Position numbers and translations under genes: made by a program
Shown: positions 4,391 through 33,476 of the stretch, one piece after another
Numbering within the stretch: position 1 is the stretch's first letter
Layout of the letters: each line of letters opens with the position of its first letter
The notes under the pieces: model-generated
Told to the model about the DNA's origin: nothing
Seen by the model: the letters and a program-made list of their open reading frames with translations, nothing else
The model's database searches: none
DNA from: a virus
Taxonomy: Duplodnaviria > Caudoviricetes
Direction: 5' to 3' (one strand)
Length of the DNA: 35,313 bases
IMG/VR virus record: IMGVR_UViG_3300050026_000116
Location: 1 to 35,313 of that record

Positions 4391-4403
4391 GTCATTAAAT
4401 GAC
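4391..4403. promoter_or_regulatory. 13-bp palindrome GTCATTWAATGAC, copy 1
   Basis: GTCATTAAATGAC, 8 nt upstream of the portal ATG (4412). Confidence 0.85.
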
Positions 4404-4411
4404 ACGCACTT

Positions 4412-6400
4412 ATGGATGATAAAATTCTAAAAGAGTTAAAAGAGCGAGAGTCTACTCCGTTTATCCAACAAATGCTTGAAGACACTAGAGCATTAGTGTC
4501 TATCAGCAGACGAAAGATGACAGAATACTACCCTTGTTGGGACAAAAACGACGATATTTATCGTTCCATAAAACAGCGTGATAAGTCTGATATTCTAGCC
4601 TTTGAACGCAATGAACCGGAGAAGATGGTCGTTCCAATCTCTTTCGCCCAGATTCAAACGTTCGTTGCGTTCTGTTTCCTTCTTTACTATCAACGAGATA
4701 GGTTTTTTGAGTTGGATGGATTTACCGCAGAGGATGATAAACCCGCAAAAGTGGGTGAGGCGTTGTTAGCCCGTGACCTAACTAAGAATGTTTTTGAAGC
4801 GAAGTTGGTGCAATATCTTTTGGACATTGCTCGTTTTGGGATTGGAGTATTGAAGGTTTCATGGAGCGTGGAAAAGCAGATGGTGCGTAAAGAAACGCCT
4901 AAAATTGCTCCGACGTTTCTGGGGGTGAAAATGGGTAAAGATACTGTAGAAGAAACTGTTGAATGGGCGACGGCGTTTGAGGGTAATCGTATAACCAACA
5001 TAAGCCCTTACCGATTTTTTCCTGATGTGCGTTTACCTTTAACCCGTTTTCAAGAAGGAGAATTTTGTGCAAGTGAAGATTTGTATTCAATGTCGCAACT
5101 TAAACAATGGGAGCATGATGGTATCATTGCCGGAGTTGACCACATTAAACCACTTGGTAAAGACATCGCACAAGACAGAGGGTATCGTTGGGATACTGGA
5201 CTTGATCCGGGCGGCGCTCTTACACAAGGCGCGGGAATCAAGGGAGACGGTCAGACAAAAAAGACTGTTATCATTACTGAATGTCAACGCACGATTATCC
5301 CATCGCAGTATGAAGTCGACGGTGAGCCACTCGGAGAAGAAGATTACCCAATAAAATACAACGTATGGATTGCTAACGACAATCGAGTGATAAAGTGCGA
5401 GCCAATGAATTACTTGCACAACGAGTTTACTTTCGGCGTTGGGCAGTTCATATACGACAACAACGTGCTTCTGTCGCCTGGATTATCAGATGTTATCGAC
5501 CAGTTACAGAACGTCATCTCTTGGTTTATCAATTCACGTATTACCAATGTTCGTAAGGTTATTGCGGATAAGTTGATTGTGAACACCTCAATGGTGAACA
5601 TGTCAGACCTCACAAATCGAAAGCCGATTATTAGGTTGACTGGAGCGGCCACTGGTGATATTGACAAATATATAAAGCAGTTGCAGTTGCAAGATGTCAC
5701 TATCCAGCACATCGCTGACGTTAAGGACTTACACGACATCTTGAAAATGGTGACAGGTATTCAAGACTCTTTGCTTGGTGAGGTGCGTCCCGGACATCGT
5801 TCAGCGACGGAGAACCGTAATACAACAACAGGAGCAGCTTCGCGTAATAAAACCTTAGCCGCTGTTATTTTCAGAAGTGGACTTGAGCCGATTGGACGGC
5901 AGATGTTGTCTAACTTACGTGATGGTCTCGACGAAGAGACTTATGTCCGCGTGCTACAGTCTAAAGCACAAGCCACTCCTGAGTTTATTAAGGTGACGAA
6001 AAAAGACCTTGTTGGCCATTATGATTTTGAAGTGTTTGACGGGACGTTGCCCTCTGACCGTTATCACATTGCAGAGGCAATAGACGAACTGTTACAAGCA
6101 CTTCTTAAAAACCCACAAGCGGCGATGTATCTTGGTATGGACCCAAAGAAACTTCTTATGGAGTCGTTGCAGCTTAGGGGAGTAAGAAACCCAGAGCGTT
6201 TTGCTCTACAACCGGAGCCAAATCCAAATGTTATTGAACCAGGCGCAGGCCAAGCCGTTGCCGGAGGACCCGGAGTTAATCCTGCGGGGACTGCGGGAGC
6301 TATACCAGAATCCTTATTACCGTTACTTACTGGAGCAACTAGCGGTGGAGGAAATAACGGCGACGGCGGAGGTGTTCCAAGTGCTGGAACCCGCCAGTGA
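4412..6400 (+). CDS. Portal protein
   Basis: 662 aa; podovirus portal-like segments (DIARFGIGVLKV, NISPYRFFPD, I..VTGI.D.LLG..SATE); directly before scaffold and capsid. Confidence 0.9.
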   Translation: MDDKILKELKERESTPFIQQMLEDTRALVSISRRKMTEYYPCWDKNDDIYRSIKQRDKSDILAFERNEPEKMVVPISFAQIQTFVAFCFLLYYQRDRFFELDGFTAEDDKPAKVGEALLARDLTKNVFEAKLVQYLLDIARFGIGVLKVSWSVEKQMVRKETPKIAPTFLGVKMGKDTVEETVEWATAFEGNRITNISPYRFFPDVRLPLTRFQEGEFCASEDLYSMSQLKQWEHDGIIAGVDHIKPLGKDIAQDRGYRWDTGLDPGGALTQGAGIKGDGQTKKTVIITECQRTIIPSQYEVDGEPLGEEDYPIKYNVWIANDNRVIKCEPMNYLHNEFTFGVGQFIYDNNVLLSPGLSDVIDQLQNVISWFINSRITNVRKVIADKLIVNTSMVNMSDLTNRKPIIRLTGAATGDIDKYIKQLQLQDVTIQHIADVKDLHDILKMVTGIQDSLLGEVRPGHRSATENRNTTTGAASRNKTLAAVIFRSGLEPIGRQMLSNLRDGLDEETYVRVLQSKAQATPEFIKVTKKDLVGHYDFEVFDGTLPSDRYHIAEAIDELLQALLKNPQAAMYLGMDPKKLLMESLQLRGVRNPERFALQPEPNPNVIEPGAGQAVAGGPGVNPAGTAGAIPESLLPLLTGATSGGGNNGDGGGVPSAGTRQ

Positions 6401-6533
6401 ACATTTCAAAAATGTAGGATTAACCTTGGGGTTAGTCCGTTTGAAAGACATACATCTAGGTAAAATAAAAGACCTAGAAGAAACCATAAAGGAACAAAAT
6501 GCTGAACAGAACGTTGATGTTACTAAGTCCTGA
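6228..6533 (+). CDS. Small helical protein overlapping the portal C-terminus
   Basis: ATG at 6228 gives 101 aa of protein-like helical sequence (LRELYQNPYYRYLLEQL). It bridges the otherwise empty portal-scaffold gap. Confidence 0.6.
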   Translation: MLLNQAQAKPLPEDPELILRGLRELYQNPYYRYLLEQLAVEEITATAEVFQVLEPASEHFKNVGLTLGLVRLKDIHLGKIKDLEETIKEQNAEQNVDVTKS

Positions 6534-7389
6534 CGCTACTGACGGTGGCGGCACGGGCACAGCGACCGTAGAAGGTACTGGTGAGAGTGGAGAACAGTTA
6601 TTTGAAGGTGCAGGTGCAGCCGGTGGTGAAGCGGCGGGTGGTAGTGGTGAGTCTGGCCCTGGTGAAGCGGGGGAGGGTAGTGAAGCGGCTGTTGCAGACG
6701 CGGCGGATGTTCCTACCAGTCTCACCAAAGATGACATAGCTTCGATACTTCGAGAAGCGGGTATTGGTGCGCAACCTACCGCTAAGGCACAGCCAGAAGC
6801 AAAGACCCCACCAACTCAGGACGAGTTGGAAAAGATGTTTAATGTCTGGAAACCGTCAGCGGAGTTGATTGCTCAACTACGGGCTGAAAAACCCGAAGAC
6901 GCTGTTGCGGCGATTGTTGCCATGCGTGACGGTATGCTTAAGCAAGTGATGACTATGGTTGAGTATCGCACGAAGCAAATCATGGATAAACTGCACGCGG
7001 ATAATATAGCACCGTTGCAACAGTATGTCAGCGAAGCACAGGCTACTTCGTTTAGGAATGACTTTTTCGTTAAGTATCCTGACCTTAACAAGTATGAAGC
7101 GCTGGTTGACGCTGTTGCGGCGAAGTTGCAACAGAGTGGGTTCCATGCGGATAATCGTGACGCAGTGATGGCAAAGTTCGCTGAGGAAACGCAGAAAGTT
7201 GTAACACAATTAACAGGTGGTCAAGCGGCGGCCGGTGCTAATAACGGTAAAGGTGGCAAAGCAGCGGCAACGTCTGGCAAAGGTAAGATGTCGACTTTGT
7301 CGACCGGTGGCGCCGCGACCGCGGGTAAAGGTGGTAGTGGCGGCGGCACAGCAGCCAAAGGCCCACCGGGGATCGAAATTTTTGACTAG
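6499..7389 (+). CDS. Capsid scaffolding protein
   Basis: Acidic Gly/Glu-rich N-terminus, helical core and Gly/Lys-rich tail; lies between portal and capsid. Confidence 0.8.
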   Translation: MLNRTLMLLSPDATDGGGTGTATVEGTGESGEQLFEGAGAAGGEAAGGSGESGPGEAGEGSEAAVADAADVPTSLTKDDIASILREAGIGAQPTAKAQPEAKTPPTQDELEKMFNVWKPSAELIAQLRAEKPEDAVAAIVAMRDGMLKQVMTMVEYRTKQIMDKLHADNIAPLQQYVSEAQATSFRNDFFVKYPDLNKYEALVDAVAAKLQQSGFHADNRDAVMAKFAEETQKVVTQLTGGQAAAGANNGKGGKAAATSGKGKMSTLSTGGAATAGKGGSGGGTAAKGPPGIEIFD

Positions 7390-7459
7390 AGTGTTTTAGT
7401 CAAACTAAGTCCACGCATTGTTGCGGAGGGCATTAACACAAAAAAGAAAGTAAACAAAC

Positions 7460-8920
7460 ATGGCAATCTTAGGCTTAGTTAGCACTGAGAGTGTTAGTGC
7501 CGAACGGTGGACGAACATCCGTAGAAAGGTGTTCTACCAATACCCGAATGGCTCTGCACCCCTCATCGGCTTGTTGTCGATGATGAAAGAGGAAGTAACA
7601 AACGACCCAGAGTTCTCGTGGTGGGAAAAGCGTCTGCTTGAACAGACGACTACTACCGTCGCGATGAACTCTGGTGGTCCGTTTGGTAAGACCTCGTCTG
7701 CGTATTACACAGACTTCAACGGCACATCGGATGCAATGGCGTTTAGCGCAACGGCCCCAGTGACGTATGGAGTGGCAGTGGCTGATGCGTCGTTGTTCCG
7801 CCCTGGACACCTTATCAGGATTCAAGGAGTGGTGTCATACTCAACCGGTTACACCTTTGATGTGATTGGTCGGGTTGTTTCCACTAGCGCCACGGGTAAT
7901 GGTAACAGTGGCCCTATCATCACGTTCACAGTAATCTCCCTCCGGCCTAATAGTGCTGGAGGCACGGCATCAGGTATTCCTACAAACGCCGCTTCTGGCG
8001 CAACTTCAAGCGTCGGCTTGGCTGTGTCGGTTGTTGGTTCTGCGTTTGCACAAGGCGTGGTTGACCTCTCGAAGGAGGTTTACTACCTGCCTATCAATCC
8101 GGGTAATAATTCCCAGATTTTCCGTACACCGTTTAGCTTCACTGGTTCAGCTCTTGTGACTCCTGTGAAGTTTGACGACACGGGTATCTATAAGGACAAA
8201 GCCAAGTCGCACAGTATCGACCACATGGTTGAGATGGAATTATCGGTGATCTTTGGTGCGAAGTCGAAGACGGTGGTTACAGGCAATGCCGACCCGACGA
8301 CGGGAGTAGGACTTCCAGTCTACACGTTCGATGGTATCATTGCGTTTCTCAATAACTGGGAAGCTCAGTATTCTATCTATCGTGGTGGTGATGGAGTTGC
8401 CTCTGGCCCTGCGGCGGTTACTGCTGATACTGACGACAACAAGCGTATCATCGTGAACTCCGCTGGCACTATGTCGGAGGATACTTACGATGGTTATCTT
8501 GAACGTCTGTTCCGCACGACGTCGAACGTCTCTAACGAGAAACTCTGCCTTTGCGGCAGCGGGTTCTTGAAGGTGATGAACGAACTCTGGCGGTCGCAGT
8601 CGACGTTGGTTTACCATCCTCCCACCGGAGACACCTTCGGCATGGAATTGGTAGCAACGAAAACAGCGTTTGGCACGGTTTATTACAAGACTCATCCGTT
8701 GTTCTCGCGGAATAGTACGCTGCGTTACAACGCGCTGTATCTCGACGTCCACAACCTGCGTTATCGTCCTATGGACAGGCGCGACACGCAGTTGCTCAAG
8801 AATCGTCAGCCTAACGACGCGGACTATCGTAAGGACGAATGGTTCACGGAGTTCGGCCTTGAGCTGCGTATGCCGGAGTCGTTCATGTATATCCAAAACG
8901 TCCAGAATTACGTTCCATAA
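7460..8920 (+). CDS. Major capsid protein (HK97 fold, DUF5309/SU10-like)
   Basis: Motifs PEFSWWEK, NNSQIFRTPFSFTGSA, H..EMELSVIFG and DYRKDEWFTEFGLE; C-ending codon bias and A-rich leader suggest high expression. Confidence 0.9.
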   Translation: MAILGLVSTESVSAERWTNIRRKVFYQYPNGSAPLIGLLSMMKEEVTNDPEFSWWEKRLLEQTTTTVAMNSGGPFGKTSSAYYTDFNGTSDAMAFSATAPVTYGVAVADASLFRPGHLIRIQGVVSYSTGYTFDVIGRVVSTSATGNGNSGPIITFTVISLRPNSAGGTASGIPTNAASGATSSVGLAVSVVGSAFAQGVVDLSKEVYYLPINPGNNSQIFRTPFSFTGSALVTPVKFDDTGIYKDKAKSHSIDHMVEMELSVIFGAKSKTVVTGNADPTTGVGLPVYTFDGIIAFLNNWEAQYSIYRGGDGVASGPAAVTADTDDNKRIIVNSAGTMSEDTYDGYLERLFRTTSNVSNEKLCLCGSGFLKVMNELWRSQSTLVYHPPTGDTFGMELVATKTAFGTVYYKTHPLFSRNSTLRYNALYLDVHNLRYRPMDRRDTQLLKNRQPNDADYRKDEWFTEFGLELRMPESFMYIQNVQNYVP

Positions 8921-9457: not shown

Positions 9458-9491
9458 GCGTGGGGGTCATTAAATGACCTCCACGCTTTTT
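9458..9491 (+). terminator. Intrinsic terminator after the capsid operon, built around palindrome copy 2
   Basis: GCGTGGGGGTCATT-A-AATGACCTCCACGC (14-nt arms, one G-U pair) followed by TTTTT. Confidence 0.8.
9466..9478. promoter_or_regulatory. 13-bp palindrome GTCATTWAATGAC, copy 2
   Basis: GTCATTAAATGAC, 16 nt upstream of ATG 9495. Confidence 0.85.
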
Positions 9492-9494
9492 AAT

Positions 9495-10220
9495 ATGCCT
9501 AATCTTAATACTCAATCAAACTTAGCAACGGCAATAGCCGGGTTTATGCACCGTGATGCTAAGGTGTTTTTACGTGATGGGTTTGACTTGCTTTTGCAGT
9601 CGTGTAATAATGCTCGGTTATACGCTGAAAGAATGGTTGACTTTGAGTATGCAATAGCTAATGTCACTATTCCGGCGGTTGATTTACATAATGGTGCGTC
9701 ATTGTCAACAGCGGTGCTCACAGGAACAACGACCCCGGCGAATGTAAAAAAGATAATGACTCCGTGGCTTGGGGAGATTGGCGGAACACAATTTCCTGTT
9801 GATTTAGTGGATAAGCGAACGTGGAACGACCGCTTGAAGCGCCGTTATGAAGGCGCTCGGCCAAAACACACGGCTGATTATGCGTTTATTACGGATTCGC
9901 CGTTTGTGTGTGTGCAAACAGGTAATACTATTTTCGTGGCTCCGGCAGATAACAAAGCATTAGGTGGAACGTTCCCGATTTTTCTGGATGCGTGGTTATG
10001 GCTGCCACCATACGTCGACGGCACAGAAACAGACTTTCTACTTGCTAATTGTTTTGATTGGATGCTTTATAGATGTATTTATGAGTTAAACTTTTTTCTA
10101 AAAGAAGACGAACGAGTAATGCTTTCAACACGTCTTATGGAAAACTCTTGGGACGCGTTGGTGAAGTGGAACAATGAACTAATAAAAGCGGCGGCAGATA
10201 GCGTCGCAGACATGGACTAA
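9495..10220 (+). CDS. Head-tail adaptor / tail tubular protein A-like
   Basis: Size and synteny; motifs IFVAP and ETDFLLANCFDWMLY..IYEL..FLKEDER. Start moved out of the terminator to 9495. Confidence 0.7.
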   Translation: MPNLNTQSNLATAIAGFMHRDAKVFLRDGFDLLLQSCNNARLYAERMVDFEYAIANVTIPAVDLHNGASLSTAVLTGTTTPANVKKIMTPWLGEIGGTQFPVDLVDKRTWNDRLKRRYEGARPKHTADYAFITDSPFVCVQTGNTIFVAPADNKALGGTFPIFLDAWLWLPPYVDGTETDFLLANCFDWMLYRCIYELNFFLKEDERVMLSTRLMENSWDALVKWNNELIKAAADSVADMD

Positions 10221-10221
10221 T

Positions 10222-11736
10222 ATGCCTTATGATAGAATAACACCGGCGACATTAGCAAACTTAGGTGCAGTTGCAACTTTGCCACTTGACACCGAAGACT
10301 CGAATGTTCTTGGTGCAGTTGATAGACAAACAAGGGAGTTTATTTACGACTTTCTTAGTAGCGTTTTTGATGCAAATGGTGATTTGCTTGCTACATCGAT
10401 AAATGTAGCTACAACGTTGGCTGGTGCAGTAAATGGATCTACTGCTAATACCGCCGGTGTTCAGCAACAAATAGTTCAAGGCACAGTAAGCACTCCTGAT
10501 ATTCGCGTAGCAGCAATTACGTCAGCGTTGATTGCGGCAGGTGCAGTTACAACTGGGTGTTTAGCTGATGGTTCAGTTACTACTGCAAAACTTGCAGCGT
10601 TGGCGGTTACTTCTGCGCAAATAGCGAACGCTACTATCACAGAAGCACAGATGGCTGCTTCGTCTATAGGCTCAGCAGAGTTAATCAATTCGTGTGTCAC
10701 AGCTATTAAAATCGCGGATGGAGTTGTTGGCACTACACAATTAGCTGCATTGTCTGTAACCGCGGCTAAAATAGCAAACAGCACAATAACCGAGGCACAA
10801 ATGGCCCCTTTGTCAGTTGGAACCACTGAGTTGATTGCGTTGAGTGTAACAACCGCGAAGCTGGCGTTGGGTGCTGTGACAGCAGCACAGATAGCCGCCG
10901 CGACTATCACAGCGGCGAATATGGCTCCGTTGTCTGTTGGTGCATCACAGTTAGTTCTAGCTTGTGTAACTGCCGCACAAATAGCTAATACAACAATCAC
11001 CGAGGCACAAATGGCTTTGTTGTCTGTTGGAACACCTGAGCTTATAGCGAAGTGCGTGACCACAGCGAAGATTAACGACGGTGCAGTTGGTGCTACACAA
11101 CTTGGTGCTAATGTGGTTGGTGTTGGACAACTAGCGCCGGGCACAGCGGCGGGGCAATTATTGGTATCAGGCACTACGTCACCGTTTAACTTAGCGTTGG
11201 TTAAACCCTCTGGGGACATTACAATGGACGGCACAGGTTTGTTTACTTTAACAGGTAAAGGTATCGCTGTTTTGCAAGAACAGCCGTCGAATGGTGTGGC
11301 TGGTGGGGCAGGTGTAGCTAACACATGGAATGTTCGTGGGGTTACTAACCCATATACAAAAATTGTGGACACAGCTACACCTACTTTTATTACTAGTGTG
11401 ACTAGTGGAAAGATTGTTTTAACTCCTGGTTCTTACCTTTTTGATGGTAGTGCACCGGCGTATGCAGTTGTTGGTCACCAAACAAGAATCAATCACTTCA
11501 ATTCCACGGGGTCTATTGCAGTGTTACATGGAACCACTGAAAATAGTCCGGTAGCAGCCGCCGTTATGACTAAGTCAGTGTTCACTGGTGTAGTAGTAAT
11601 AGCCGCTGGTGATTATGTTCAAATTGAACATTTTATTAACACGCATACTAACGCAAACGATTTTGGTATAGCAGCTGCGGCGGCTGGCTCAGTTTATGAA
11701 GTCTATGCACAAATCCGAATCGAGAAACTAAGTTAA
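10222..11736 (+). CDS. Tail fibre-like protein with decapeptide repeats and a C-terminal beta domain
   Basis: About 22 in-register 10-aa repeats (VTTAKLAxxA type); C-terminal domain with LTPGSYL...AGDYVQIEH. Confidence 0.8.
   Translation: MPYDRITPATLANLGAVATLPLDTEDSNVLGAVDRQTREFIYDFLSSVFDANGDLLATSINVATTLAGAVNGSTANTAGVQQQIVQGTVSTPDIRVAAITSALIAAGAVTTGCLADGSVTTAKLAALAVTSAQIANATITEAQMAASSIGSAELINSCVTAIKIADGVVGTTQLAALSVTAAKIANSTITEAQMAPLSVGTTELIALSVTTAKLALGAVTAAQIAAATITAANMAPLSVGASQLVLACVTAAQIANTTITEAQMALLSVGTPELIAKCVTTAKINDGAVGATQLGANVVGVGQLAPGTAAGQLLVSGTTSPFNLALVKPSGDITMDGTGLFTLTGKGIAVLQEQPSNGVAGGAGVANTWNVRGVTNPYTKIVDTATPTFITSVTSGKIVLTPGSYLFDGSAPAYAVVGHQTRINHFNSTGSIAVLHGTTENSPVAAAVMTKSVFTGVVVIAAGDYVQIEHFINTHTNANDFGIAAAAAGSVYEVYAQIRIEKLS
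10462..11136 (+). repeat. Coding 30-nt (10-aa) tandem repeat array
   Basis: Residues 81-305 stay in 10-aa register without indels. The higher-order unit IANxTITEAQMA recurs three times. Confidence 0.9.
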
Positions 11737-11739
11737 AAT

Positions 11740-11976
11740 ATGATACTAAACATTGTAGAAACATCCAATATGCCGCCGTCTTTGACGGTAGCACAACTGA
11801 GAGACATACTAGGAATGGTAGTGGGCGGTGGTCTTTCAATCGTATTTGCCGGTGCGAAGGGGGCGACGCCGACAACATCACCAACTGTGGCAGGGCAATA
11901 TGCCATTAACCAATCCACAAATGAATTATGGTTCGTCAATAGTTCACTCGCGTGGCAACAAATCATCAAAGTGTAA
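11740..11976 (+). CDS. Small tail-region hypothetical protein
   Basis: 78 aa; PT..PT..GQYAINQSTNELW..W resembles fibre-associated beta modules. Confidence 0.65.
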   Translation: MILNIVETSNMPPSLTVAQLRDILGMVVGGGLSIVFAGAKGATPTTSPTVAGQYAINQSTNELWFVNSSLAWQQIIKV

Positions 11977-11977
11977 T

Positions 11978-12244
11978 ATGAAAAAAATACTTATCTGTGT
12001 TGGTGTAGTCGTTGGCGTTAGTTTACTATTGCTTGCACAGCCTCCTGCGGCGTCTATCTCAGGTTCGTTGACGCTTACTAACGACGGCGTCAATGTTTAC
12101 GTCTCCACCAACCTTCCTGTGGCGTTATCAACAAACTCCATCACACCTCCAACAGCTATCGCCAACTACGGTATACTGTGGAACTCTAACAGCGCTTTGT
12201 ATTGGGTTACAACCTCACACACAAACAGACTTAGCGCACCTTAA
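11978..12244 (+). CDS. Small signal-peptide-bearing protein within the tail operon
   Basis: ATG 11978: MKKILICVGVVVGVSLLLLAQ...; Thr-Asn-rich mature part; abuts both neighbours. Confidence 0.7.
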   Translation: MKKILICVGVVVGVSLLLLAQPPAASISGSLTLTNDGVNVYVSTNLPVALSTNSITPPTAIANYGILWNSNSALYWVTTSHTNRLSAP

Positions 12245-13678
12245 ATGGCCACTACTCGACAGTTTATCCTCCATGAGAACGTCATAGGAGGGATGGATTC
12301 AACGACGCCAGCGCATCTTATAGGTGAAAAATGGCGGAGTCAGCACAACTTTAGGCTGACTCCGACGTTACAACAAGTGCCTAAAAAGGTGCAGTTGACG
12401 GCTCCAACAGGTACACCTATTACGTTTATAGGTTATATTCCTTCTTTTGTGTCTGGTTATGGGCAGCAAGTTATTTTGACATCTCCAACCCGTGCGCAGC
12501 GTTGGTCAACTGCACTTTACAACGGAACGCTTTACACTAGCTTATCAAGTTATATCACAATCTGGTATGACCATTTTGTAAAAGCAGCGGTTAATACAGT
12601 GCAGATAAGCGACTTGTATGATTTTACAAACTTTACTCCTGACGCCACAAACGAAGCAGATTATTACGACTTAGTTGAATGGCAACAGCCAGATTATTTG
12701 TATAGTGGTATCACTGGAGTGGGTAAGTTAGGTAGCACACTTTGGATTTACACACCCACTGCTATTATCCCTATTCAGTATATAGGCTTGCCAAAGGTGA
12801 TACAGGTTGTGGAATCTGGTGTAATTACTCGAATAGGAAATTCGTTTCCGTGGACGTTAGTTTGCTTGGGTAATGTGCACTTTTTTTATGAAGCATACGA
12901 GAGCATGTTTTTTGCTTTTAACGGGGGTGGTGCACCAGAAGCTATTGGTGAACCAGTGAGGGAATTTATCCAACAGAATCTTAACCCCGACCCGACATTA
13001 GCAAAGTTAATGTATGGGTATATTGATGTCGACAATCGAGAAATTTGGTGGCCTTTTGTGTCAAAGAACTCTACAGGCACGTATGATTTAGCTGTGGTTT
13101 TTAATTATCGTTACAAACGCTGGTTCACTGCATCAGTTGAAGATGTTACGTGTTTCTGCGGTCGTGGGTTTGAAACACAACCAATCGAAGATTTGAGTGG
13201 AACTATTGATGGTTTGATTGGGCCGATAGACCATTTGAGTTTATCCCCGGCAGAAACACCTCGGCTATTTGGAACAGGGGTTGGACAGACCTTACGTGAG
13301 GAATTATCGACAGATAGTAGTTCATCTTTACTTCCTACTGATGATCCAGTATTAGAAAGTGGTGATTTTCATTATGGAGATATACGCACTCAAAAAGAAA
13401 ACGATGCTATGGTGCTAAATGCGTGGTGGGAGCAAATAGATTTTGATAAGCCGTTAGTGGAGATTCGCGTAGCCACAAGAAACTATCTAGGTGAAGGTGT
13501 AAAATGGAGCGACGATCCAGTTGCTACTTGGACACCAGACATCCAAGATTCAATTGCAACTTACGAAGCAGTTAATGGCCGTATTTTACGCTATAAATTT
13601 ACATTCAAAAACACTCGGCAAGCTGTGTTATCCGCGTATAGTGATGTTGTTTTGGTTAAACTTAAAGCTGAGAAATGA
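12245..13678 (+). CDS. Tail nozzle / stabilisation protein (tubular B, P22 gp10-like)
   Basis: Beta-propeller-like composition, N-terminal GGMDS, REIWW..YNYRYKRW; synteny before GNAT and ejection genes. Confidence 0.72.
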   Translation: MATTRQFILHENVIGGMDSTTPAHLIGEKWRSQHNFRLTPTLQQVPKKVQLTAPTGTPITFIGYIPSFVSGYGQQVILTSPTRAQRWSTALYNGTLYTSLSSYITIWYDHFVKAAVNTVQISDLYDFTNFTPDATNEADYYDLVEWQQPDYLYSGITGVGKLGSTLWIYTPTAIIPIQYIGLPKVIQVVESGVITRIGNSFPWTLVCLGNVHFFYEAYESMFFAFNGGGAPEAIGEPVREFIQQNLNPDPTLAKLMYGYIDVDNREIWWPFVSKNSTGTYDLAVVFNYRYKRWFTASVEDVTCFCGRGFETQPIEDLSGTIDGLIGPIDHLSLSPAETPRLFGTGVGQTLREELSTDSSSSLLPTDDPVLESGDFHYGDIRTQKENDAMVLNAWWEQIDFDKPLVEIRVATRNYLGEGVKWSDDPVATWTPDIQDSIATYEAVNGRILRYKFTFKNTRQAVLSAYSDVVLVKLKAEK

Positions 13679-15339: not shown

Positions 15340-17202
15340 ATGCCGAATACGAATATAACAACAAACAGTTTTTCTAATAGTGATCTTTCTTCACGGTTAA
15401 GTCAACGTCCTAAAAAACGTGGTATTTGGGATGTGAATAACGCTGGTTCAAAGCAGCCAGACATGACAGATTATATGTCAAAAGGGTTTCCACGTGTCGC
15501 TGCTCAAGTAACAAATCCTCTGGGGGGAGTAAGTGAACAACCTCCTACGCCGTTACCGAAGGAGTTTCAAAATATATCAAAAAATAATATATTTGATTCT
15601 ACACGTGGTGGGGTAGAACCTACACCAGCACCAACGCCTTCGCCGTCCGCGCCGCCAGCAGCACCAATTAAGTCTCCACAACCAGCAACTAATCCGTTAT
15701 TTAAGTGGATGCCACAAACAGATACTACTCAAAATCAACCAACAGCTTCGACGTCTCCTGTTGAACCACTTGATGCTTTTCTTTCTCGTATGGGAGGTGC
15801 TGTTAATACCGGCGTTCAAAAAACTCAACCACATGGTGGTGGTTTTGGAAATATGGATGCGTTATCTATGCGAGCCGCGGGTGGACAAGCAGGACTTGGT
15901 GGTGGTGCGGGGTTTGGTAGTTCTGGCTCACCTGAAATGAATAATTTTCTTAATAAAACATTGGGTTTTGGTGGATTACAACGCACTATAGGACAAGCAC
16001 AATCTGGTAGTGCGATGGGTAATAGCCTTGCGTTACGTAGAGCGAATGATGAGTCTATGGATTCGCAGATGCGTAGACTGGCACAAGGAGAAGATATTGG
16101 TGCACAGCGCGTTAGAGAACGTGGCGAAATGCAAAAACAATGGGAGGATCAGCAAAGGTTTCCGTTAAACCAGGCACAGCAACAAGAAAGTAACAGAGAA
16201 CAACCGTGGAAGTTTGCTGAAGATATGGTGCAAAGTGAACAAAATCGTAACGAACAAGCGGGAGGTTTTGACTTAGCGCAAAGAACTGGAGAAGAAAATC
16301 TAAAGGAACTACCGATGAAGTTCCAGTTAGACCTAGCAGATAAGCTATCTAAGATAACAGGTATTCCACGTGAGACTGCACTTGATATGTTGCCGTATTT
16401 GTATTCATTACCTCCAGCGGCGAGGACGCAGATTTTAAATACGTTGATGCCGGGAATGGATACTGGTGATATGAGTGGGAATGGTAGTGCTACAGCACCC
16501 CCCGAACAACAACCAACAGAGAAAGCTAGTTTTTTGCAGTCAGCTTTGCATGGAGGTATACCAGCACTGACTAGTGGTGCTGGTTGGGCAGGTGCGGCTG
16601 CTTTAGCGCCTGAGACTGGAGCGGCTAGTTTTATAGTGCCATTTGTTGCGTCGTTGTTATCAGCGTGGTTGGGCGGAAAGGCAGTGAATGCAGTTGATCC
16701 TAGTTTTTCACAGAAAGAACCAAATCCTTATGGTGAAGGACTTGGAAGCATTGCTGGTGCCTTTGCGGGGTATAAAGGCACTAAAGCGTTAATGCCGGGT
16801 AAAACACCAGCAACGAAGCCGACTACATCAGCAAAAACTACAAAACCTGGTGAAGGTCAATGGAAAGATTACGGAACACAAGCATCAAAACCTACTCCGC
16901 CCGACATGACTTTGAAGGGTAATCCTGACATACAAGATGCCTTGAATAAGTCAGGGCTTAGAAACGCCGCTAGAGTACCAAAACAGCTTGGAATGGGTGC
17001 GGGTAATTTTCAAATGTATCCTGGACAGGTGAGACCACCGCCACAAGGTATAGGTGAAATGGAACAGATGCAACTTCCGCAAGGTAGTATATCACCGTTG
17101 GCATTACCCGGACCACAAACAGACCCATCAAAGCTGCTTCCATCGCCAGACCTTAATTTACAGATGTTAGAGCTGCTTTACAAACTCCAGCAAGCTCAAT
17201 AG
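15340..17202 (+). CDS. Putative internal virion / DNA ejection protein
   Basis: Pro/Gln/Gly-rich disordered regions plus Gly/Ala-rich hydrophobic helices. Start moved to ATG 15340. Confidence 0.62.
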   Translation: MPNTNITTNSFSNSDLSSRLSQRPKKRGIWDVNNAGSKQPDMTDYMSKGFPRVAAQVTNPLGGVSEQPPTPLPKEFQNISKNNIFDSTRGGVEPTPAPTPSPSAPPAAPIKSPQPATNPLFKWMPQTDTTQNQPTASTSPVEPLDAFLSRMGGAVNTGVQKTQPHGGGFGNMDALSMRAAGGQAGLGGGAGFGSSGSPEMNNFLNKTLGFGGLQRTIGQAQSGSAMGNSLALRRANDESMDSQMRRLAQGEDIGAQRVRERGEMQKQWEDQQRFPLNQAQQQESNREQPWKFAEDMVQSEQNRNEQAGGFDLAQRTGEENLKELPMKFQLDLADKLSKITGIPRETALDMLPYLYSLPPAARTQILNTLMPGMDTGDMSGNGSATAPPEQQPTEKASFLQSALHGGIPALTSGAGWAGAAALAPETGAASFIVPFVASLLSAWLGGKAVNAVDPSFSQKEPNPYGEGLGSIAGAFAGYKGTKALMPGKTPATKPTTSAKTTKPGEGQWKDYGTQASKPTPPDMTLKGNPDIQDALNKSGLRNAARVPKQLGMGAGNFQMYPGQVRPPPQGIGEMEQMQLPQGSISPLALPGPQTDPSKLLPSPDLNLQMLELLYKLQQAQ

Positions 17203-17207
17203 TCCAT

Positions 17208-17220
17208 GTCATTTAATGAC
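17208..17220. promoter_or_regulatory. 13-bp palindrome GTCATTWAATGAC, copy 3
   Basis: GTCATTTAATGAC, 8 nt upstream of ATG 17229. Confidence 0.85.
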
Positions 17221-17228
17221 CTGCACAT

Positions 17229-24244: not shown

Positions 24245-24252
24245 AGGTTGGG

Positions 24253-24265
24253 GTCATTTAATGAC
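24253..24265. promoter_or_regulatory. 13-bp palindrome GTCATTWAATGAC, copy 4
   Basis: GTCATTTAATGAC on +; 8 nt upstream of the minus-strand ATG at 24244; contains the TAA of the upstream gene. Confidence 0.85.
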
Positions 24266-24446
24266 ACGGACAGATTTCGATTTCGATGTCGCCGTCACGA
24301 AAAGTAAATAGTTTCGCGTCGGGCGACATGAACTCGGCTATTTTTCCGTCATCGGTTTGAGCGTTTTTAACAGTGAAGTATACTTCAACTTCACGATAGG
24401 GAAGTTTTAAGCATTCGAGTTCTCGGGTTAGGTCACTTAGTTTCAT
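24258..24446 (-). CDS. Hypothetical protein
   Basis: 62 aa; ATGA-coupled to the upstream ORF. Confidence 0.68.
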   Translation of the reverse strand: MKLSDLTRELECLKLPYREVEVYFTVKNAQTDDGKIAEFMSPDAKLFTFRDGDIEIEICPCH

Positions 24447-24658
24447 ATTTCGTAGTTTTGTGGTGGGGTTATTAGATTGTCTACATTATGAAAGAATGTT
24501 TCATAAGCTGATACGTTTAAAACTCGGTTACTTATTTTGTTAATCCTGGCCATTGTTTTACGGTGTGCGGTTGTTTGATCTGCTATACGATGAGCGTCGG
24601 CTTCACTATCAGTATTGATTTGTTCTTCACCGAACTCGGTTTTAATTTTGTATATCAT
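24443..24658 (-). CDS. Hypothetical protein
   Basis: 71 aa; ATGA-coupled to the polymerase stop. Confidence 0.68.
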   Translation of the reverse strand: MIYKIKTEFGEEQINTDSEADAHRIADQTTAHRKTMARINKISNRVLNVSAYETFFHNVDNLITPPQNYEI

Positions 24659-27297
24659 ATTACGCCTGCTTTTAGATTACCCCATGATTCGCCATACGCC
24701 CCTTCAAAAGGGATTACAATTTTTTGCCCCGCGATTTCCAGTGAGTTGTTAAACCAATGTCTAATCTTTGCAGTTGCGAAGGAGACATCTTCCTTACGGA
24801 ATTGACCAATGAGTGCGTCGTGAACGGTGTGAAGAGGCTGGACTTTAAGATTATATTGCGTAGCTGTTTTGCTATCTTTGGACTCCACGGAGTTATTTTC
24901 TGGGTCTTCCCAGAGAGCGTTGACTGCGAGTTTTGTTGCATAGGTTGTGTTGTGTTGTGGTTCTTCTGCACAGGCTTCCATAAAGGTTTTATGATCGTCT
25001 CGACGACCAAAAAAATCTCTTCTATGTCCACTTGCGCTGATAAGGTATCCTTTTGTTTTTAGTTGAGATTTAATCCACCGATGCCATAAGTGAATACCTG
25101 GATAACGAGAAAGGTAGACACCTGCTTCTATAAGGCACTTAGAAGGGGCGACATAAACCGGCTCTCCAAACAGCTTATAGCTGTCTTTGAGGATTTGGTC
25201 AGACATCGTGGCTTCTTTCATACCGTAATTAGTGCCGTGTTGAATACGCTTGCGAGCAAAATACATCCACTCGTCTTGGTTTATACCTTTGCTTTCTTCT
25301 TTGATACGTTCACGAGGCCAGCTATTTACTTGACGGCCGTGCATGGAGATAAGACTTAAGATTTTCGCTGGCTTTAGTCCGTAGAGATAGTCGTCGAGCA
25401 TCGTTGAATCGCCGACCGATTTACAATGAGCAGCGACGGTCCACCCGTCTGCTCCTGACAAGTCACATTGGAATAACCAATACCCTTCATCAGGCAAGAA
25501 CAAGTCGCGGTCTTTTTTCGTTGCAGTCTGGAGATTAAAGCCGCTGCCTGTGGGAGACTCATAACAAGACAACCTACCAGTCTTTGTCCCGACAAGATTA
25601 TATCCACATCTAATTCTACCATCGTCGTCAGTTTTAGCTTGTAAGGATTCACATCTTGTTCTGAGTGCACGGATTTTGAGGATGAGTTTAAGTGTCGGGT
25701 CTTGTGTTTTGCCGTATAATGTCAGTAATGCAAGCACATCCGTGGTCTCCTTTTCAGTTCGACGGCCGTGCTCTTTTTTGTATTGGATTGGGAGACCTAG
25801 TTGACGGTAGAGAAAGTCTGCGATTTGGTTTTTGCTTTCGACGTTGAGACAATGATCAGTTAAAACACTCAACCTGCCGTGATTCGCAAGGTTAAGGGGT
25901 TCTCGCAACAATCTTTCGGCTTCAACTGCGAGCTGGAGACAAGTATTTTTCGCATGGCTGATGATGTCGGACGTGAGATTGACAAAAGATGCGTCCCGTT
26001 TGAAACATAAGACGTCCCTACAGACGTCCACCCAGGCGGCAATACAATTGGGATGTGGCATACCTGCAATCTCGTTAAGCGCCCACTGGAGGCGGTTGAT
26101 TTTGGTTTGGAGGTCGTTGTATTTTTCACGTGCTTTTTTGCTGTCATAGTTTATTCCTTTTATTTCTTGGTAGAGCGTGGGTTCGAGTAGTTTCATGTTA
26201 AGGCGGTAGTGCTCTAGCTGCCGCCCTTTTAACTGTTTCAACAAAGCATCTCGTATTTCGTAGGTAACGGCGGAGTCTTTACAACAATACCGCCAGCGGG
26301 TGATTTGATCTTCGTCGTCACGTTCCTCTTTCCAGTAAGGTTCACGAGTGTAGATTGACGCTTGGAAGGCTAGGGACTTTTTCATCTCACAAAAAAGTTC
26401 CCAGTGCATAAGCATCGTGTCGTCAACGACGCCGCGAACGGGGATGTTGTAACCGTATTGGAGAACGAAGGTGTCGTAGAGGCTGTTCTGGAGGATTTTA
26501 GGAACTGTTGGGTCTGAAAGCACTTCTGCTAGACGACGTAAAATTTGTGTTTCTGCGGCCGCGTCCCAGTGGTTGGTGAAGGGTATTATGAAAGACTCTT
26601 GGGGTGAAACTGCAACACTAATACAAGTCATTCCGTCGACGTAGCCTTCGATGTCTATACTAATGGTGGTTTTGTTTGCTTGTATACTATCAAGTCGTTC
26701 GCAGATTTCTTCGACCGAGAGGCCGATAGTTAGTTGACGTTCAGGAAGGATTAACTCCGCCGACATCCCTTCATGCTTTGCACGTCGGAGGTCGAAAGCA
26801 AGTAGAGGTTTACCAGAGTATTCACGTAAGATTCCAGCTGGATGCAACGTTGCAAGACATTTGTATCTGACCCCGTTGAGGGAACCGTTAAAAAGACTAC
26901 CACGCCAGTTTGTGATTCCTGTCTCTCCAGTGAAGGCACGTAAAGGTGTGTTGCCAAGCAAGAGACATAGATTTGGCTTGAACTGCACGAGGTCGGTATG
27001 TAACTGTTTAAGTCCATTTTGTATTTCTTCTCCATTCCAGTTGAAGGCTTCGATTTTATTACCAGGAGGACGTATTTGACAAACGTTTCCGACAAAACAC
27101 GCATCACGTAGAATACCAACCTTTGCGGCCTCTGCCCAGAGTAAGCGGCCACTATAACCCACAAAAGGCCGCCCTTCGTATTCTTCGTCAGCGCCGGGAG
27201 CTTCACCGATAATAGCTATGCGGTAGGCTTGGTTGGCGTAGCGTGGGAAGTTATTCGGGACTAGGTTCTTTGTGAGTGGTTGAAGTTCTGAGTTCAT
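24655..27297 (-). CDS. polA: Family A DNA polymerase with N-terminal uracil-DNA glycosylase-like domain and 3'-5' exonuclease
   Basis: UDG family-4 motifs GEAPG, RPFVG.SG.LL, RPPGN, TLHPA. Exo I/II/III: DIEG, QNSLYD, YCCKD. Polymerase: TGRLS, motif A DLSGAD, motif B KRIQHGTNYG, motif C VHDAL. Confidence 0.95.
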   Translation of the reverse strand: MNSELQPLTKNLVPNNFPRYANQAYRIAIIGEAPGADEEYEGRPFVGYSGRLLWAEAAKVGILRDACFVGNVCQIRPPGNKIEAFNWNGEEIQNGLKQLHTDLVQFKPNLCLLLGNTPLRAFTGETGITNWRGSLFNGSLNGVRYKCLATLHPAGILREYSGKPLLAFDLRRAKHEGMSAELILPERQLTIGLSVEEICERLDSIQANKTTISIDIEGYVDGMTCISVAVSPQESFIIPFTNHWDAAAETQILRRLAEVLSDPTVPKILQNSLYDTFVLQYGYNIPVRGVVDDTMLMHWELFCEMKKSLAFQASIYTREPYWKEERDDEDQITRWRYCCKDSAVTYEIRDALLKQLKGRQLEHYRLNMKLLEPTLYQEIKGINYDSKKAREKYNDLQTKINRLQWALNEIAGMPHPNCIAAWVDVCRDVLCFKRDASFVNLTSDIISHAKNTCLQLAVEAERLLREPLNLANHGRLSVLTDHCLNVESKNQIADFLYRQLGLPIQYKKEHGRRTEKETTDVLALLTLYGKTQDPTLKLILKIRALRTRCESLQAKTDDDGRIRCGYNLVGTKTGRLSCYESPTGSGFNLQTATKKDRDLFLPDEGYWLFQCDLSGADGWTVAAHCKSVGDSTMLDDYLYGLKPAKILSLISMHGRQVNSWPRERIKEESKGINQDEWMYFARKRIQHGTNYGMKEATMSDQILKDSYKLFGEPVYVAPSKCLIEAGVYLSRYPGIHLWHRWIKSQLKTKGYLISASGHRRDFFGRRDDHKTFMEACAEEPQHNTTYATKLAVNALWEDPENNSVESKDSKTATQYNLKVQPLHTVHDALIGQFRKEDVSFATAKIRHWFNNSLEIAGQKIVIPFEGAYGESWGNLKAGVI

Positions 27298-27649: not shown

Positions 27650-29056
27650 TCATACAAACGTCACTTTCTTATACATTGTTTTCCAGTAGTCTTTCACTTG
27701 TTCAACTTGATAACTGAAATGGGTTGTGTTCTTTTCTATCGACAACACTCGGCGATTTAACCGTAGTCCACTAATAACTCCACTACCTTCACCCGCAAAC
27801 GGATCAAGGACTGTTTGCCCCTCGGTGCTGACGGCTTCGTATAGATACTTCCATATATGAAACGGTTTCGCAAATTGATTTGACACCCGCTCGGCGTCAT
27901 TAGAACAAACCTCCCAGTTTAATGCCACAGGTTTAGGTAGTTGTGCTTTGCCTTTACGACACACCATAGCAATCTCTGTTGCTTTTGTGATGTTGATGTG
28001 TGCCATTTGGTTTAAGGCTTGGGGTTTACACCAGACTAAAGGCCAACGTTGTACACGAAAGCCAGCGGATTCAGCGAGGGTGTAGAGGTATTGCCACTGC
28101 ATTTGGTCGCACCAGTGGATGAAATAGCCGCCGTCACGGAGGACACGATAGAACGGAGCCATCATGGTTGAAAGTAGGTTTATGTTCTCGTCGACTTCGT
28201 GTTCGTCTTTAACGCGTGAGATGTCGTTAAAACGTGTTTTGGATTGGTCAAGAACGTCAAGATCAATCGCGAATGGTGGGTCGGTGATGATGTGGTCGAC
28301 GCTGTCTGCGGGCCATTCTGCGAGAACTTCGCGGCAATCTCCACAGAAAAGACTATGAGATAAGTCGATTTGGTGGTCGATGACGTCGCCGCCAGAGAGT
28401 TCGTCGTCGGCGAATAGTGATACAGTGGCGGCGTCGGGTGTAGGTAAAGGAGTGGCAACGCTAACCATACCTGTGCGACGTGCTTGCTCTGCAATGGCTT
28501 TGTCTTCGAGGATGCGGTAGTAAACCCTTAAAGCGTCAGTTATGGAAGTGCAATCGTTGTATTTTTCATCCACGATTAACGGAGCAAGGGTAAGGCAGTT
28601 AGTTACATACACACGAGAATACCCGCCCAACAGCTCTCCCGTCATTTCTTGCGTCCATTCAGTGCGGTTAATCGCAGCTTCGCGGCTACGGGTGGTGTGA
28701 ACTGCACAGACAGATTTTATAGTTTCACGCCAGGTTAGGTCAAGCCGACGTAGGTTGGTTTCGAGTTCAACTTCAAAGTATTCAGCGGGGCTTAAAGCGT
28801 CCCGACGGTAGACAGGGATAAGGTTATACTTCTCTGGATTAGCTTTTCGTAACCGCAGCCACGATGTAAACCGACACCAACCATCAACAAGAGTGTTTGT
28901 TTGGTCTAAAAGAATGGGTTGAAGAAGGCCGTAACGTTCGATGGAACTACAAAGCTGTTCAAGGTGAGATTCGATGTCAGGCCGAGAGGCACTAGTGCCA
29001 TCACGGACGCGGTGTTCGATGTTTATTTGTTCAACGGGGAATAATTCTTGGGACAT
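27650..29056 (-). CDS. ParB-domain / HTH / beta-class N4C-N6A DNA methyltransferase fusion
   Basis: ParB box LCSSIERYGLLQPILL..LVDGWCR and ELETNLRR; HTH WTQEMTGELLGGYSRVYVT; MTase motif IV IITDPPF before motif I VLDPFAGEGS. Start moved to ATG 29056. Confidence 0.92.
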   Translation of the reverse strand: MSQELFPVEQINIEHRVRDGTSASRPDIESHLEQLCSSIERYGLLQPILLDQTNTLVDGWCRFTSWLRLRKANPEKYNLIPVYRRDALSPAEYFEVELETNLRRLDLTWRETIKSVCAVHTTRSREAAINRTEWTQEMTGELLGGYSRVYVTNCLTLAPLIVDEKYNDCTSITDALRVYYRILEDKAIAEQARRTGMVSVATPLPTPDAATVSLFADDELSGGDVIDHQIDLSHSLFCGDCREVLAEWPADSVDHIITDPPFAIDLDVLDQSKTRFNDISRVKDEHEVDENINLLSTMMAPFYRVLRDGGYFIHWCDQMQWQYLYTLAESAGFRVQRWPLVWCKPQALNQMAHINITKATEIAMVCRKGKAQLPKPVALNWEVCSNDAERVSNQFAKPFHIWKYLYEAVSTEGQTVLDPFAGEGSGVISGLRLNRRVLSIEKNTTHFSYQVEQVKDYWKTMYKKVTFV

Positions 29057-29065
29057 ATAGTTGGG

Positions 29066-29078
29066 GTCATTAAATGAC
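29066..29078. promoter_or_regulatory. 13-bp palindrome GTCATTWAATGAC, copy 5
   Basis: GTCATTAAATGAC on +; 9 nt upstream of the ParB-MTase ATG; dyad extends to 29060-29084 with one mismatch. Confidence 0.85.
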
Positions 29079-29107
29079 CTCAACGGAGGGGTTAGCCCCC
29101 GTTGAGG
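29078..29107 (-). terminator. GC-rich hairpin after the SSB gene (terminator or stabilising stem)
   Basis: CCTCAACGG(A)GGG-GTTAG-CCCCCGTTGAGG on +. No clear U-tract. Confidence 0.55.
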
Positions 29108-32973: not shown

Positions 32974-33106
32974 GTTCGTTATTTTTAATAGAAAGGTTTA
33001 TTTCTATGTTACGTAGTATACGACGGATTTGTTCAAGCCGATGTAATAGCTCGAAGAAGGCGCAAACAGGTATACCAACTTCAAATATAGTCCATAATGT
33101 TTTCAT
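32966..33106 (-). CDS. 46-aa hypothetical protein (not in the ORF track)
   Basis: Translated by hand: MKTLWTIFEVGIPVCAFFELLHRLEQIRRILRNIEINLSIKNNEHE*. ATGA-coupled upstream and overlaps the next start. Confidence 0.6.
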   Translation of the reverse strand: MKTLWTIFEVGIPVCAFFELLHRLEQIRRILRNIEINLSIKNNEHE

Positions 33107-33285
33107 TTTCTGTGTGTATACTCCTTTCTGATTTGTGCCTCTTGTATTGCAAGCATGTCTTTCAACTTCGCAATGTCGAGTGCGTAACCGTCGTCAGGGT
33201 CGACGTCGGCGGTGAGTTCAAAACGGACACTTTCATAGTTGCCGACGTTGATTGTGCGGCCTAGAGTGATTCGAGTGATTTTCAT
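33103..33285 (-). CDS. Small phage hypothetical protein
   Basis: 60 aa; RTINVGNYESVRFEL resembles a motif common in small phage proteins; coupled at both ends. Confidence 0.75.
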   Translation of the reverse strand: MKITRITLGRTINVGNYESVRFELTADVDPDDGYALDIAKLKDMLAIQEAQIRKEYTHRK

Positions 33286-33449
33286 TCTGGTTTCCTTTCG
33301 TCGGCCACAGTTATGACCTTAATTTGACAACAACGAAGAACACATATTTCGTCAACGTTTATCCACAAAACCTTGCCGTCGGCTCTTATACGCACTTCGA
33401 CAACTTTGGGAGACGTTATATCTAACATACTAACTTTTTCAATTTTCAT
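33282..33449 (-). CDS. 55-aa hypothetical protein (not in the ORF track)
   Basis: Translated by hand: MKIEKVSMLDITSPKVVEVRIRADGKVLWINVDEICVLRCCQIKVITVADERKPE*. ATGA overlap with 33285. Confidence 0.7.
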   Translation of the reverse strand: MKIEKVSMLDITSPKVVEVRIRADGKVLWINVDEICVLRCCQIKVITVADERKPE

Positions 33450-33463
33450 ATTTTTCTGTTCAT

Positions 33464-33476
33464 GTCATTTAATGAC
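33464..33476. promoter_or_regulatory. 13-bp palindrome GTCATTWAATGAC, copy 6
   Basis: GTCATTTAATGAC on +; 14 nt upstream of the minus-strand ATG at 33449. Confidence 0.85.

Follow-up and report, generated by a model that had tools for sequence, protein, structure and literature searches.

Dispersed 25-bp palindromes in a group of phages and their probable reader, a ParB–helix-turn-helix–methyltransferase

A 35,313-nucleotide fragment of a peat phage genome (the window) contains six exact copies of a 13-nucleotide palindrome, which are real and non-random and form the cores of 25-bp symmetric elements. These elements are very probably bound by a protein of the same phage that joins a ParB fold, a helix-turn-helix (HTH) and a predicted DNA methyltransferase, a conclusion drawn from sequence comparison. 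Lineage-specific versions of the site occur in 44 of 49 related records, at 4–12 copies each and with a median gap of 5 kb, and residue 148 of the protein tracks the base six positions from the site centre across these relatives.

The palindromes in the window and in related phages

The core copies at 4391, 9466, 17208, 24253, 29066 and 33464 were found exactly where the original prediction had placed them, against 0 expected by chance; none of 100 shuffles reached six. Its other positional observations also held: the distances to ATG codons (8, 16, 8, 8, 9 and 14 nt), the gaps of 4.4–7.7 kb between copies, the presence of copies in both arms and the independence of the central base from the direction of transcription. 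A degenerate motif scan of the window returned no copy with one mismatch and only two with two mismatches. The proposed unit of 13 nucleotides had an exact core but was too short, as the full element is GT-N4-GTCATTWAATGAC-N4-AC, 25 bp, in 6/6 window copies (Table 1). In every copy, GT occupies -12/-11 and AC +11/+12 relative to the centre, which chance would give at about 0.004 per site, or 3e-15 for six, and the N4 bases between core and outer GT/AC show the same half-site preference on both arms. Scored with a matrix built from two close relatives, the window sites reach 32–39 bits and the next position 8.

Each window site ends 2–10 nt upstream of a start codon, and one precedes the ParB gene itself. 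Near-identical records include roughly 11 kb that is absent from the window, and three further copies lie there. Among the gene names given originally, portal, the neighbour of the DUF3987 primase/helicase and methylase are supported, whereas ‘adaptor’ and ‘ejection protein’ have no family match and come from gene order.

Table 1. Sites in the window and in near-identical records, and parts of the ParB–HTH–methyltransferase
Feature	Position	Strand	Remarks
Site 1	4385..4409	.	25-bp palindrome, 2 nt upstream of portal ATG
Site 2	9460..9484	.	Downstream of capsid operon; upper part of a terminator-like stem (9458-9486), then T run
Site 3	17202..17226	.	Between 660-aa ORF stop and 1850-aa ORF start
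Site 4	24247..24271	.	Contains 62-aa ORF stop codon; 2 nt before 93-aa ORF, itself upstream of primase/helicase
Site 5	29060..29084	.	3 nt upstream of ParB–HTH–methyltransferase ATG
Site 6	33458..33482	.	8 nt upstream of 55-aa ORF
Extra site, near-identical records			Upstream of large terminase
Extra site, near-identical records			Upstream of small ORF
Extra site, near-identical records			ORF-poor divergence region, 269 nt from nearest called ATG
ParB–HTH–methyltransferase gene	27650..29056	-	468 aa; likely reader of the sites
ParB N-terminal nucleotide-binding fold	28742..29056	-	Residues 1-105; R16/R18, GxxR 59-62, E97, N101, R104
ParB-type helix-turn-helix	28583..28657	-	Residues 134-158; R148 aligns with ParB R173, Noc Q158
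Beta-class N6/N4 DNA methyltransferase domain	27671..28375	-	Intact motif I and motif IV (DPPF)
Predicted dimer interface, methyltransferase domain	residues 318-381	-	Homodimer model

The site sequence differs between close lineages: applied to 43 records, the window matrix found sites only in three close relatives, plus two sites in one Arg-bearing relative. The statement that copies lie just upstream of start codons is true of the six window sites but overstated for the family, in which 60 of 327 sites fall inside coding regions, 28 of them in ORFs of at least 1,200 aa. Of the 327, 33% end no more than 15 nt from a called ATG, against 22% for random junction positions. Gaps between sites are more even than in random draws of gene junctions in 27/43 records (p<0.05; median 5.0 kb), and a site lies within the giant ORF in 18 of the 20 records with an ORF of at least 2,000 aa and in 16/16 above 2,200 aa. 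The genes downstream of sites vary from lineage to lineage, and just 6/42 records have a site in the 100 nt preceding the ParB gene. The sites do not cluster at one centromere; they are spread evenly.

These site lists are automatic finder output without hand-refined seeds; the G049 motif is weak, and the 327 include two low-scoring positions in G006 (21 and 19 bits) that are probably false. A fixed-frame search missed lineages with different outer bases, which general finders recovered, and the sites of G050 and G051, both missed by the main finder, come from a separate one. De novo search and all 43 matrices found no site in G026, G048, G055, Mel-JY34 or Kuura; the first four have an intact-looking ParB–methylase fusion despite this, and Kuura gave no ParB–methylase match either.

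The ParB–HTH–methyltransferase and its residue 148

A profile of the N-terminal part of the protein (11 sequences) matched Noc, Spo0J and ParB structures through the HTH, with E values of 2e-17 to 2e-14 and Noc as the best matches, and the model of the N-terminal domain aligned with PadC and KorB at Z 11.7 (rmsd 2.4–2.5 Å, 92 residues). The methyltransferase domain model resembles MboIIA (Z 23.8, rmsd 2.5, 199 aligned), and motif IV precedes motif I, as in the MboIIA/CcrM fold of beta-class N6/N4 enzymes. Both methylase motifs are recognizable in 44/47 proteins. Box I–III residues (GxxR, ENxxR) are conserved in the family; at the position of the catalytic GERR glutamate, the window protein has Trp, and Glu is present in only 7/46. 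In the window protein the ParB fold starts at the N terminus, leaving no extension ahead of it that could hold a peptide for ParA or membrane binding, and no ParB C-terminal domain was found. A predicted homodimer passes through the methylase domains with a score of 0.64 (best control 0.00), the mark having been reached by 20/30 solved homodimers and 1/23 single chains; at least 42% of contacts recur between runs, with pLDDT at least 68, and the prediction may reflect memory of solved beta-class dimers. The gene is placed in the replication arm, away from the terminase. ParA (PF13614) was found in 0/47 records and in 0/22 of those at least 90% complete (control 14/14).

The methylase is not common to all carriers of the sites. 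In G011 it is replaced by a domain without a recognized family (searches gave no identification, and the predicted model has a pLDDT of 33); because this record keeps 9 sites, the sites are independent of methylation. G054, with 7 sites retained, has a ParB–HTH that lacks a methylase; the gene after it encodes an ABC-ATPase and gives a weak GNAT signal, an arrangement that suits a targeting module able to exchange its cargo.

In ParB the base read by R173 is G, and in Noc that read by Q158 is A (PMC7383237); the same pairings recur at residue 148. Among 34 non-redundant rows, Arg goes with G in 6/6, small or hydrophobic residues with T in 19/19 and Gln with A in 2/2 (Fisher p 6e-6, kinship ignored). 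Under a chemistry code that was devised after the first 15 rows had been seen, the residue-148 column ranks 1st of 4,885 (kappa 0.72, next 0.46), and no column in 14 other families comes near it; 5/34 rows escape the code (D, K, K, H, P), as does G046, where N is paired with T. On a polymerase+primase tree, 5/5 independent pairs agree in direction, with p 0.0625 being the floor for five pairs. A model-free leave-one-out test over 4,200 columns places the HTH column 2nd, behind one capsid column (kappa 0.90, n 20); when 4,118 columns were scanned by plain mutual information, it lay outside the top 5 at all seven site positions. Twelve predictions were set down beforehand: ten matched, two of these needing a one-base register shift (even-symmetric sites), one failed and one concerned a record without a site; four of the predicted records were not fully blind, with low-scoring seeds already visible. 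A D-to-C residue–base guess failed in G032. The dimeric DNA-binding protein at a dispersed parS-like site that was originally postulated thus gains support, and the ParB–HTH–methyltransferase can be named as its probable identity.

A possible loading mechanism and its relation to known systems

Biology established for ParB, Noc and KorB suggests how such a protein might work, and we lean slightly towards a nucleotide-gated clamp that closes, slides and carries the methylase along DNA in cis. The HTH would read the 25-bp sites in duplex DNA, and the protein would load there as a dimer. Nucleotide binding would then close the dimer around the DNA, and the closed dimer would slide a few kilobases, methylating phage DNA in cis, with the methylase dimer standing in for the ParB C-terminal dimerization domain. 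One site per ~5 kb would give reach over the whole genome, and the lineage-specific site would serve as a private address, sparing host and competitor DNA from modification. The most likely purpose of methylation in cis would be protection from host restriction. The wider reading, of a widespread phage group in which a ParB clamp-methylase loads at private 25-bp sites and modifies strictly in cis, with a one-residue/one-base address and swappable cargo, seems to us evenly balanced; the cargo would be a methylase, an ABC-ATPase/GNAT-like partner or an unknown domain.

All six window sites lie at gene starts, as for a repressor, an observation that runs against loading and sliding. GTAC and GATC are strongly under-represented in the window (20 against 202 expected and 98 against 215, respectively), and because this avoidance persists, any methylation would not be blanket protection. 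Near the sites, no adenine palindrome is better tolerated and restriction-word tolerance extends to GC-rich words only, probably from nearby hairpins; word-bias tests found no methylation target sequence. Nucleotide preference is not predictable from sequence or models (PMC12704722), and the NTP binders named in the accessible text of that paper include no N6N4-methylase fusion.

A close parallel is KorB with its OB operators on plasmid RK2 (PMC11790492, PMC13768133), in which a ParB-family HTH protein uses about a dozen dispersed palindromes with a variable central base. KorB, whose N-terminal domain is among those matching the window protein model, also has a non-canonical residue at the GERR glutamate. 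The window system differs in belonging to a phage, in its 25-bp sites, in the methylase that replaces the C-terminal dimer domain and in having no ParA/IncC or identified KorA-like partner; sliding has been shown for KorB and would be expected of the window protein by analogy. Chromosomal ParB–parS and Noc–NBS (PMC7383237) share the fold and HTH, with the same position reading the same bases (Arg-G, Gln-A), and Noc–NBS shares the dispersed sites. By contrast, the phage sites are odd-symmetric in most lineages and longer, with outer GT/AC, and their specificity diverges fast and includes T-reading variants; the phage proteins carry enzymatic cargo and have no ParA.

The domain pair itself, PF02195 + PF01555, is frequent in phages, where an anti-defence role has been guessed; the accessible text of PMC12704722 gives these ParB–N6N4-methyltransferase fusions no known target or mechanism and names no HTH or cognate site, whereas here sites and a recognition rule are proposed. 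Phage ParB-dependent thymine dioxygenases (PMC13229309) likewise couple a ParB fold to a DNA-modifying enzyme, and ParB directing modification to loci is cited there as an unconfirmed idea. That ParB is a separate protein without a DNA-binding domain, activates the dioxygenase without its NTP residues and, in the accessible text, has no known sites. A literature search, mainly of open-access main texts, found no publication in which a phage ParB-methylase is given its sites; the supplements of PMC12704722 may list tested N6N4 fusions.

The finding names one protein and the sites it probably uses, and adds dozens of natural specificity variants together with a rule linking residue to base, so that a single protein and a single oligonucleotide are enough to put the question to the test. 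Should loading and sliding hold, one replicon could be modified and others in the same cell spared. The finding would also furnish a natural set of near-orthogonal ParB/site pairs; in the wider reading, the system would be a self-marking anti-restriction device and a programmable, site-loaded DNA-painting tool.

Other roles and other readers

The same protein and sites could instead serve KorB-like transcription control, in which the dimer would repress or time operon junctions, including that of its own gene, and the methylase would be secondary. We consider this unlikely but a serious contender. KorB uses twelve dispersed 13-bp odd palindromes in this manner (PMC13768133), and the placement of the window sites just before start codons (one of them that of the ParB gene), the mild family-wide enrichment near ATGs and the retention of sites without a methylase in G011 and G054 all agree with it. 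Against it stand the intragenic sites, including those in ORFs of at least 1,200 aa, the differences in following genes among lineages and the rarity of a site close upstream of the ParB gene. A search confined to tyrosine integrases found one in 0/29 records (many of the records are partial), so there is no sign of a prophage to silence.

Mycobacteriophage stoperators and the conserved inverted repeats of phiC31 are repressor sites present in many copies at gene junctions genome-wide, and they belong to temperate phages with CI-like repressors. Unlike these, the window system has a ParB-type reader, sites that are also intragenic and no tyrosine integrase found.

A role in genome handling as a nucleoprotein, by Noc-like occlusion, compaction, host-ParA positioning of a plasmid-like phage or a self-mark for packaging, appears improbable. 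The even genome-wide spread, the lineage-private sequence and the best matches to Noc would suit it, and a prediction has connected phage methylases linked to ParB with packaging (PMC4738411), but the records lack detectable ParA, the window protein has no peptide extension, its gene does not adjoin the terminase and the methylase motifs are kept in nearly all proteins.

There is only a slim chance that the sites are read by a terminase small subunit, an unannotated regulator or a host repressor, or that they serve a phage RNA polymerase as promoters. A number of conserved ORFs belong to no recognized family, one capsid column outranks the HTH column and four records combine a fusion with no detected site; another reader is nevertheless opposed by the lack of any rival to R148 in the 14 other families and by the change of site between close lineages. 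A phage promoter is opposed by the absence of an RNA polymerase family match and fits poorly with symmetric sites that lie mid-gene or as little as 2 nt ahead of an ATG. Counts of sigma-70 promoters and terminators are the same as in shuffles. Host candidates from a genome scan were two contigs in unrelated MAG bins and are not trusted.

The hairpin limiting low-copy proteins that was originally offered as an option, formed in RNA over the ribosome-loading region, is very improbable, as is an RNA processing site: sites 2 (-25 kcal/mol, z -5.7) and 5 (z -2.8) fold well and the post-capsid site lies within a terminator-like stem in many relatives, but three of the other four show no gain in folding over shuffles and one only a slight gain (z 0.80, 0.41, -0.38, -0.95), G.T is not commoner than A.C at 115 oriented sites (inner 35 vs 34, outer 49 vs 72), unpaired bases separate the invariant outer GT/AC from the core, and Rfam matches number 0. 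With neither a generally stable fold nor pairing-preserving variation on the transcribed strand, the element behaves as a duplex-DNA site and not as an RNA stem. In two studies, site 5 is spanned by RNA-library contigs of a relative with ~92% identity, a kind of evidence that reveals neither starts nor levels of transcripts.

Distribution of the palindrome

The six copies of GTCATTWAATGAC noted in the window are all present at gene boundaries (see table), against an expectation of 0, and no shuffle reaches six. A degenerate scan of the window, allowing up to three mismatches, added matches at chance level only (13 found versus 18 expected). With the flanks read, every window copy forms part of a 25-bp element, GT-N4-core-N4-AC; its four spacer bases show the same half-site preference on either arm, yet are frequently unpaired with each other. 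Near-identical records hold three further sites in an arc that is missing from the window, giving nine in total.

Coordinates of the sites, genes and regions discussed
Record	Position	Strand	Feature
Window	4391, 9466, 17208, 24253, 29066, 33464		Sites 1–6 (13-mer starts)
Window	1–2570		633-aa and laminin-G ORFs
Window	24655–27297		DNA polymerase A with N-terminal uracil-DNA glycosylase domain
Window	27650–29056	−	ParB–HTH–methyltransferase, 468 aa
L018 (near-identical phage)	7860–8140		ORF-poor divergence region holding a site
G054 (relative; L220)	9983–12288		242-aa ParB–HTH without methylase, overlapping start of ABC-ATPase gene
G011 (relative; L106)	2857–4092		ParB–HTH fused to 180-aa C-terminal domain in place of methylase
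G043 (relative)	27768		Site with KorB-like core

We compared 49 records: 22 obtained via the motif or capsid protein, 24 via the ParB–methylase and three GenBank phages. In 43 of them, automatic finders recovered a dispersed palindrome scoring well above shuffles, and a relative's matrix recovered six sites in another, such that the element occurs, in lineage-specific form, in 44 of the 49. Sites occur in 21 of the 22 records chosen independently of the ParB protein. The inner bases vary from lineage to lineage, the window matrix recognizes only three close relatives plus two sites in one other record, and in two distant lineages the symmetry is even, not odd.

Desulfofustis phage LS06-2018-MD01 (L094; OP947158.1) carries its own palindrome in nine copies and a ParB–HTH–methylase annotated as a ParB-like partition protein. 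A 47-kb family member in an archaeal MAG bin (L280), probably misbinned, has four sites under a relative's matrix. One site in G043 has a 13-bp core identical to the RK2 KorB OB operator as printed in PMC13768133, probably through convergence.

A probable reader of the sites

The original prediction of a site for a dimeric DNA-binding protein now has a candidate reader, the ParB–HTH–methylase, which occurs in 47 of the 49 records (of the others, one lacks that arm and the phage Kuura has no match). R148, in its helix-turn-helix, aligns with R173 of Caulobacter ParB and Q158 of Noc; in crystal structures the former reads G and the latter A (PMC7383237). Across 34 non-redundant rows pairing the equivalent residue with base six from the site centre, Arg accompanies G (6/6), A, V, L, M, F, Y, T or S accompanies T (19/19) and Gln accompanies A (2/2). 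G015 and both even-symmetric lineages follow this rule, the latter at position seven; the remaining rows are His (G, G and T), Lys (C and T), Asp (T) and Pro (G, at a weak site).

A residue-to-base code was drawn up from general protein–DNA chemistry once the first 15 rows had been seen. Under it, the R148 column ranks first among 4,885 columns from 15 protein families (kappa 0.72, with 0.46 for the runner-up); in a ranking free of any code it comes second of 4,200. Single column ranks need care, because a plain mutual-information scan did not place R148 among its top five and an unrelated terminase column scored perfectly against a near-constant site position. All five independent pairs on a tree agree with the rule (P = 0.0625). 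Twelve predictions were written down ahead of fetching whole records; 10 proved correct, one was wrong and for one the record yielded no site. Weak seeds for four of the 12 were already visible, so those four were not fully blind. The palindromes are a real feature, likely identified, and the ParB–HTH–methylase very probably binds them.

The kinds of component are already known: clamps of the ParB family that use palindromic sites, and ParB–methylase fusions of phages. Such fusions have been reported without sites or function, and no report of cognate sites for them was found in the literature searched. A ParABS system was rejected, as two of its defining features are lacking.

Loading, repression or RNA

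Palindromes are the loading sites of ParB, Noc and KorB, which then close on CTP and slide (PMC12704722, PMC11790492 and PMC13768133). The phage protein retains the residues that bind phosphate, whereas the GERR glutamate is mostly missing; KorB also departs at this position yet hydrolyses CTP (PMC11790492). The ParB C-terminal domain is absent; a homodimer model instead places a predicted interface in the methylase domain (score 0.64 versus 0.00 for the best control, a mark reached by 20 of 30 homodimers of solved structure and by 1 of 23 single chains; contact agreement at least 42% and pLDDT at least 68), although the model is possibly a memory of solved dimers. The likeness to KorB–OB and Noc–NBS lies in the proposed way of working, here with an enzyme as the cargo.

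The median distance between sites is 5.0 kb, and in 27 of 43 records their spacing is evener than when junctions are drawn at random. A site lies within the giant ORF in 18 of 20 records in which that ORF reaches at least 2,000 aa, and in 8 of 13 with a shorter one. Placement looks constrained by DNA coverage, with junctions taken where available. Given this spread, and because ParA (0/47 records) and tyrosine integrase (0/29) were not found, the most likely use of the sites is to load the methylase onto phage DNA and let it travel. We consider it somewhat better than an even bet that the protein would load at the sites, slide and methylate in cis. Against this, strong GTAC and GATC avoidance persists, G011 and G054 retain sites with other cargo, no site was detected in four records that carry the fusion, and a related phage ParB functions without NTP residues (PMC13229309).

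The main rival is KorB-like repression by the same protein at the same sites, for which it speaks that each window site covers a gene start. The noted placement beside start codons holds for all six window sites but weakens across the family: only 33% of 327 sites have their end no more than 15 nt from a called ATG, versus 22% for random junction positions (a comparison resting on crude gene calls), and 60 fall within long ORFs or coding regions confirmed by family. The alternative of an RNA hairpin is not supported: folding is clearly stronger than in shuffles at sites 2 and 5 alone and, in 115 sites with an assignable transcribed strand, G.T appositions equal or trail A.C (inner, 35 versus 34; outer, 49 versus 72); the element behaves as DNA, not RNA. 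In many relatives the site after the capsid operon also forms the top of a terminator-like stem, which we read as co-option of the palindrome.

Possible domain exchange and other genome features

Seven relatives (G016, G023, G028, G034, G038, G043 and G045) have a site inside the ParB–methylase gene, in six of them 630–790 nt from the gene start, near the linker. The methylase-free arrangement of G054, whose ABC-ATPase gene has a weak GNAT signal (phrog_11143, E = 5e-87), suggests swapped cargo, with seven sites retained. G011 retains nine; its C-terminal domain had no Pfam or Atlas match and its model was unusable.

The window is a fragment of a podovirus-like phage with genes for portal, capsid, DUF3987 primase/helicase, UDG-fused Pol A, methylase, Sak4 and exonuclease, and the records of this phage come from peat metagenomes. 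At its left end, colinearity with near-identical records is lost, which suggests a variable module for receptor binding. Most window genes lack a Shine–Dalgarno sequence and have A/C-rich leaders. GTAC is strongly avoided (20 versus 202 expected), falling to near zero in several relatives; GATC, AATT, GGWCC and several 6-bp palindromes are also avoided in the window, pointing to host restriction pressure. The L018 region is a candidate origin or genome end: a small GC hairpin adjoins its site, a short inverted repeat lies some 220 nt off, and a run of A gives way to a long run of T.
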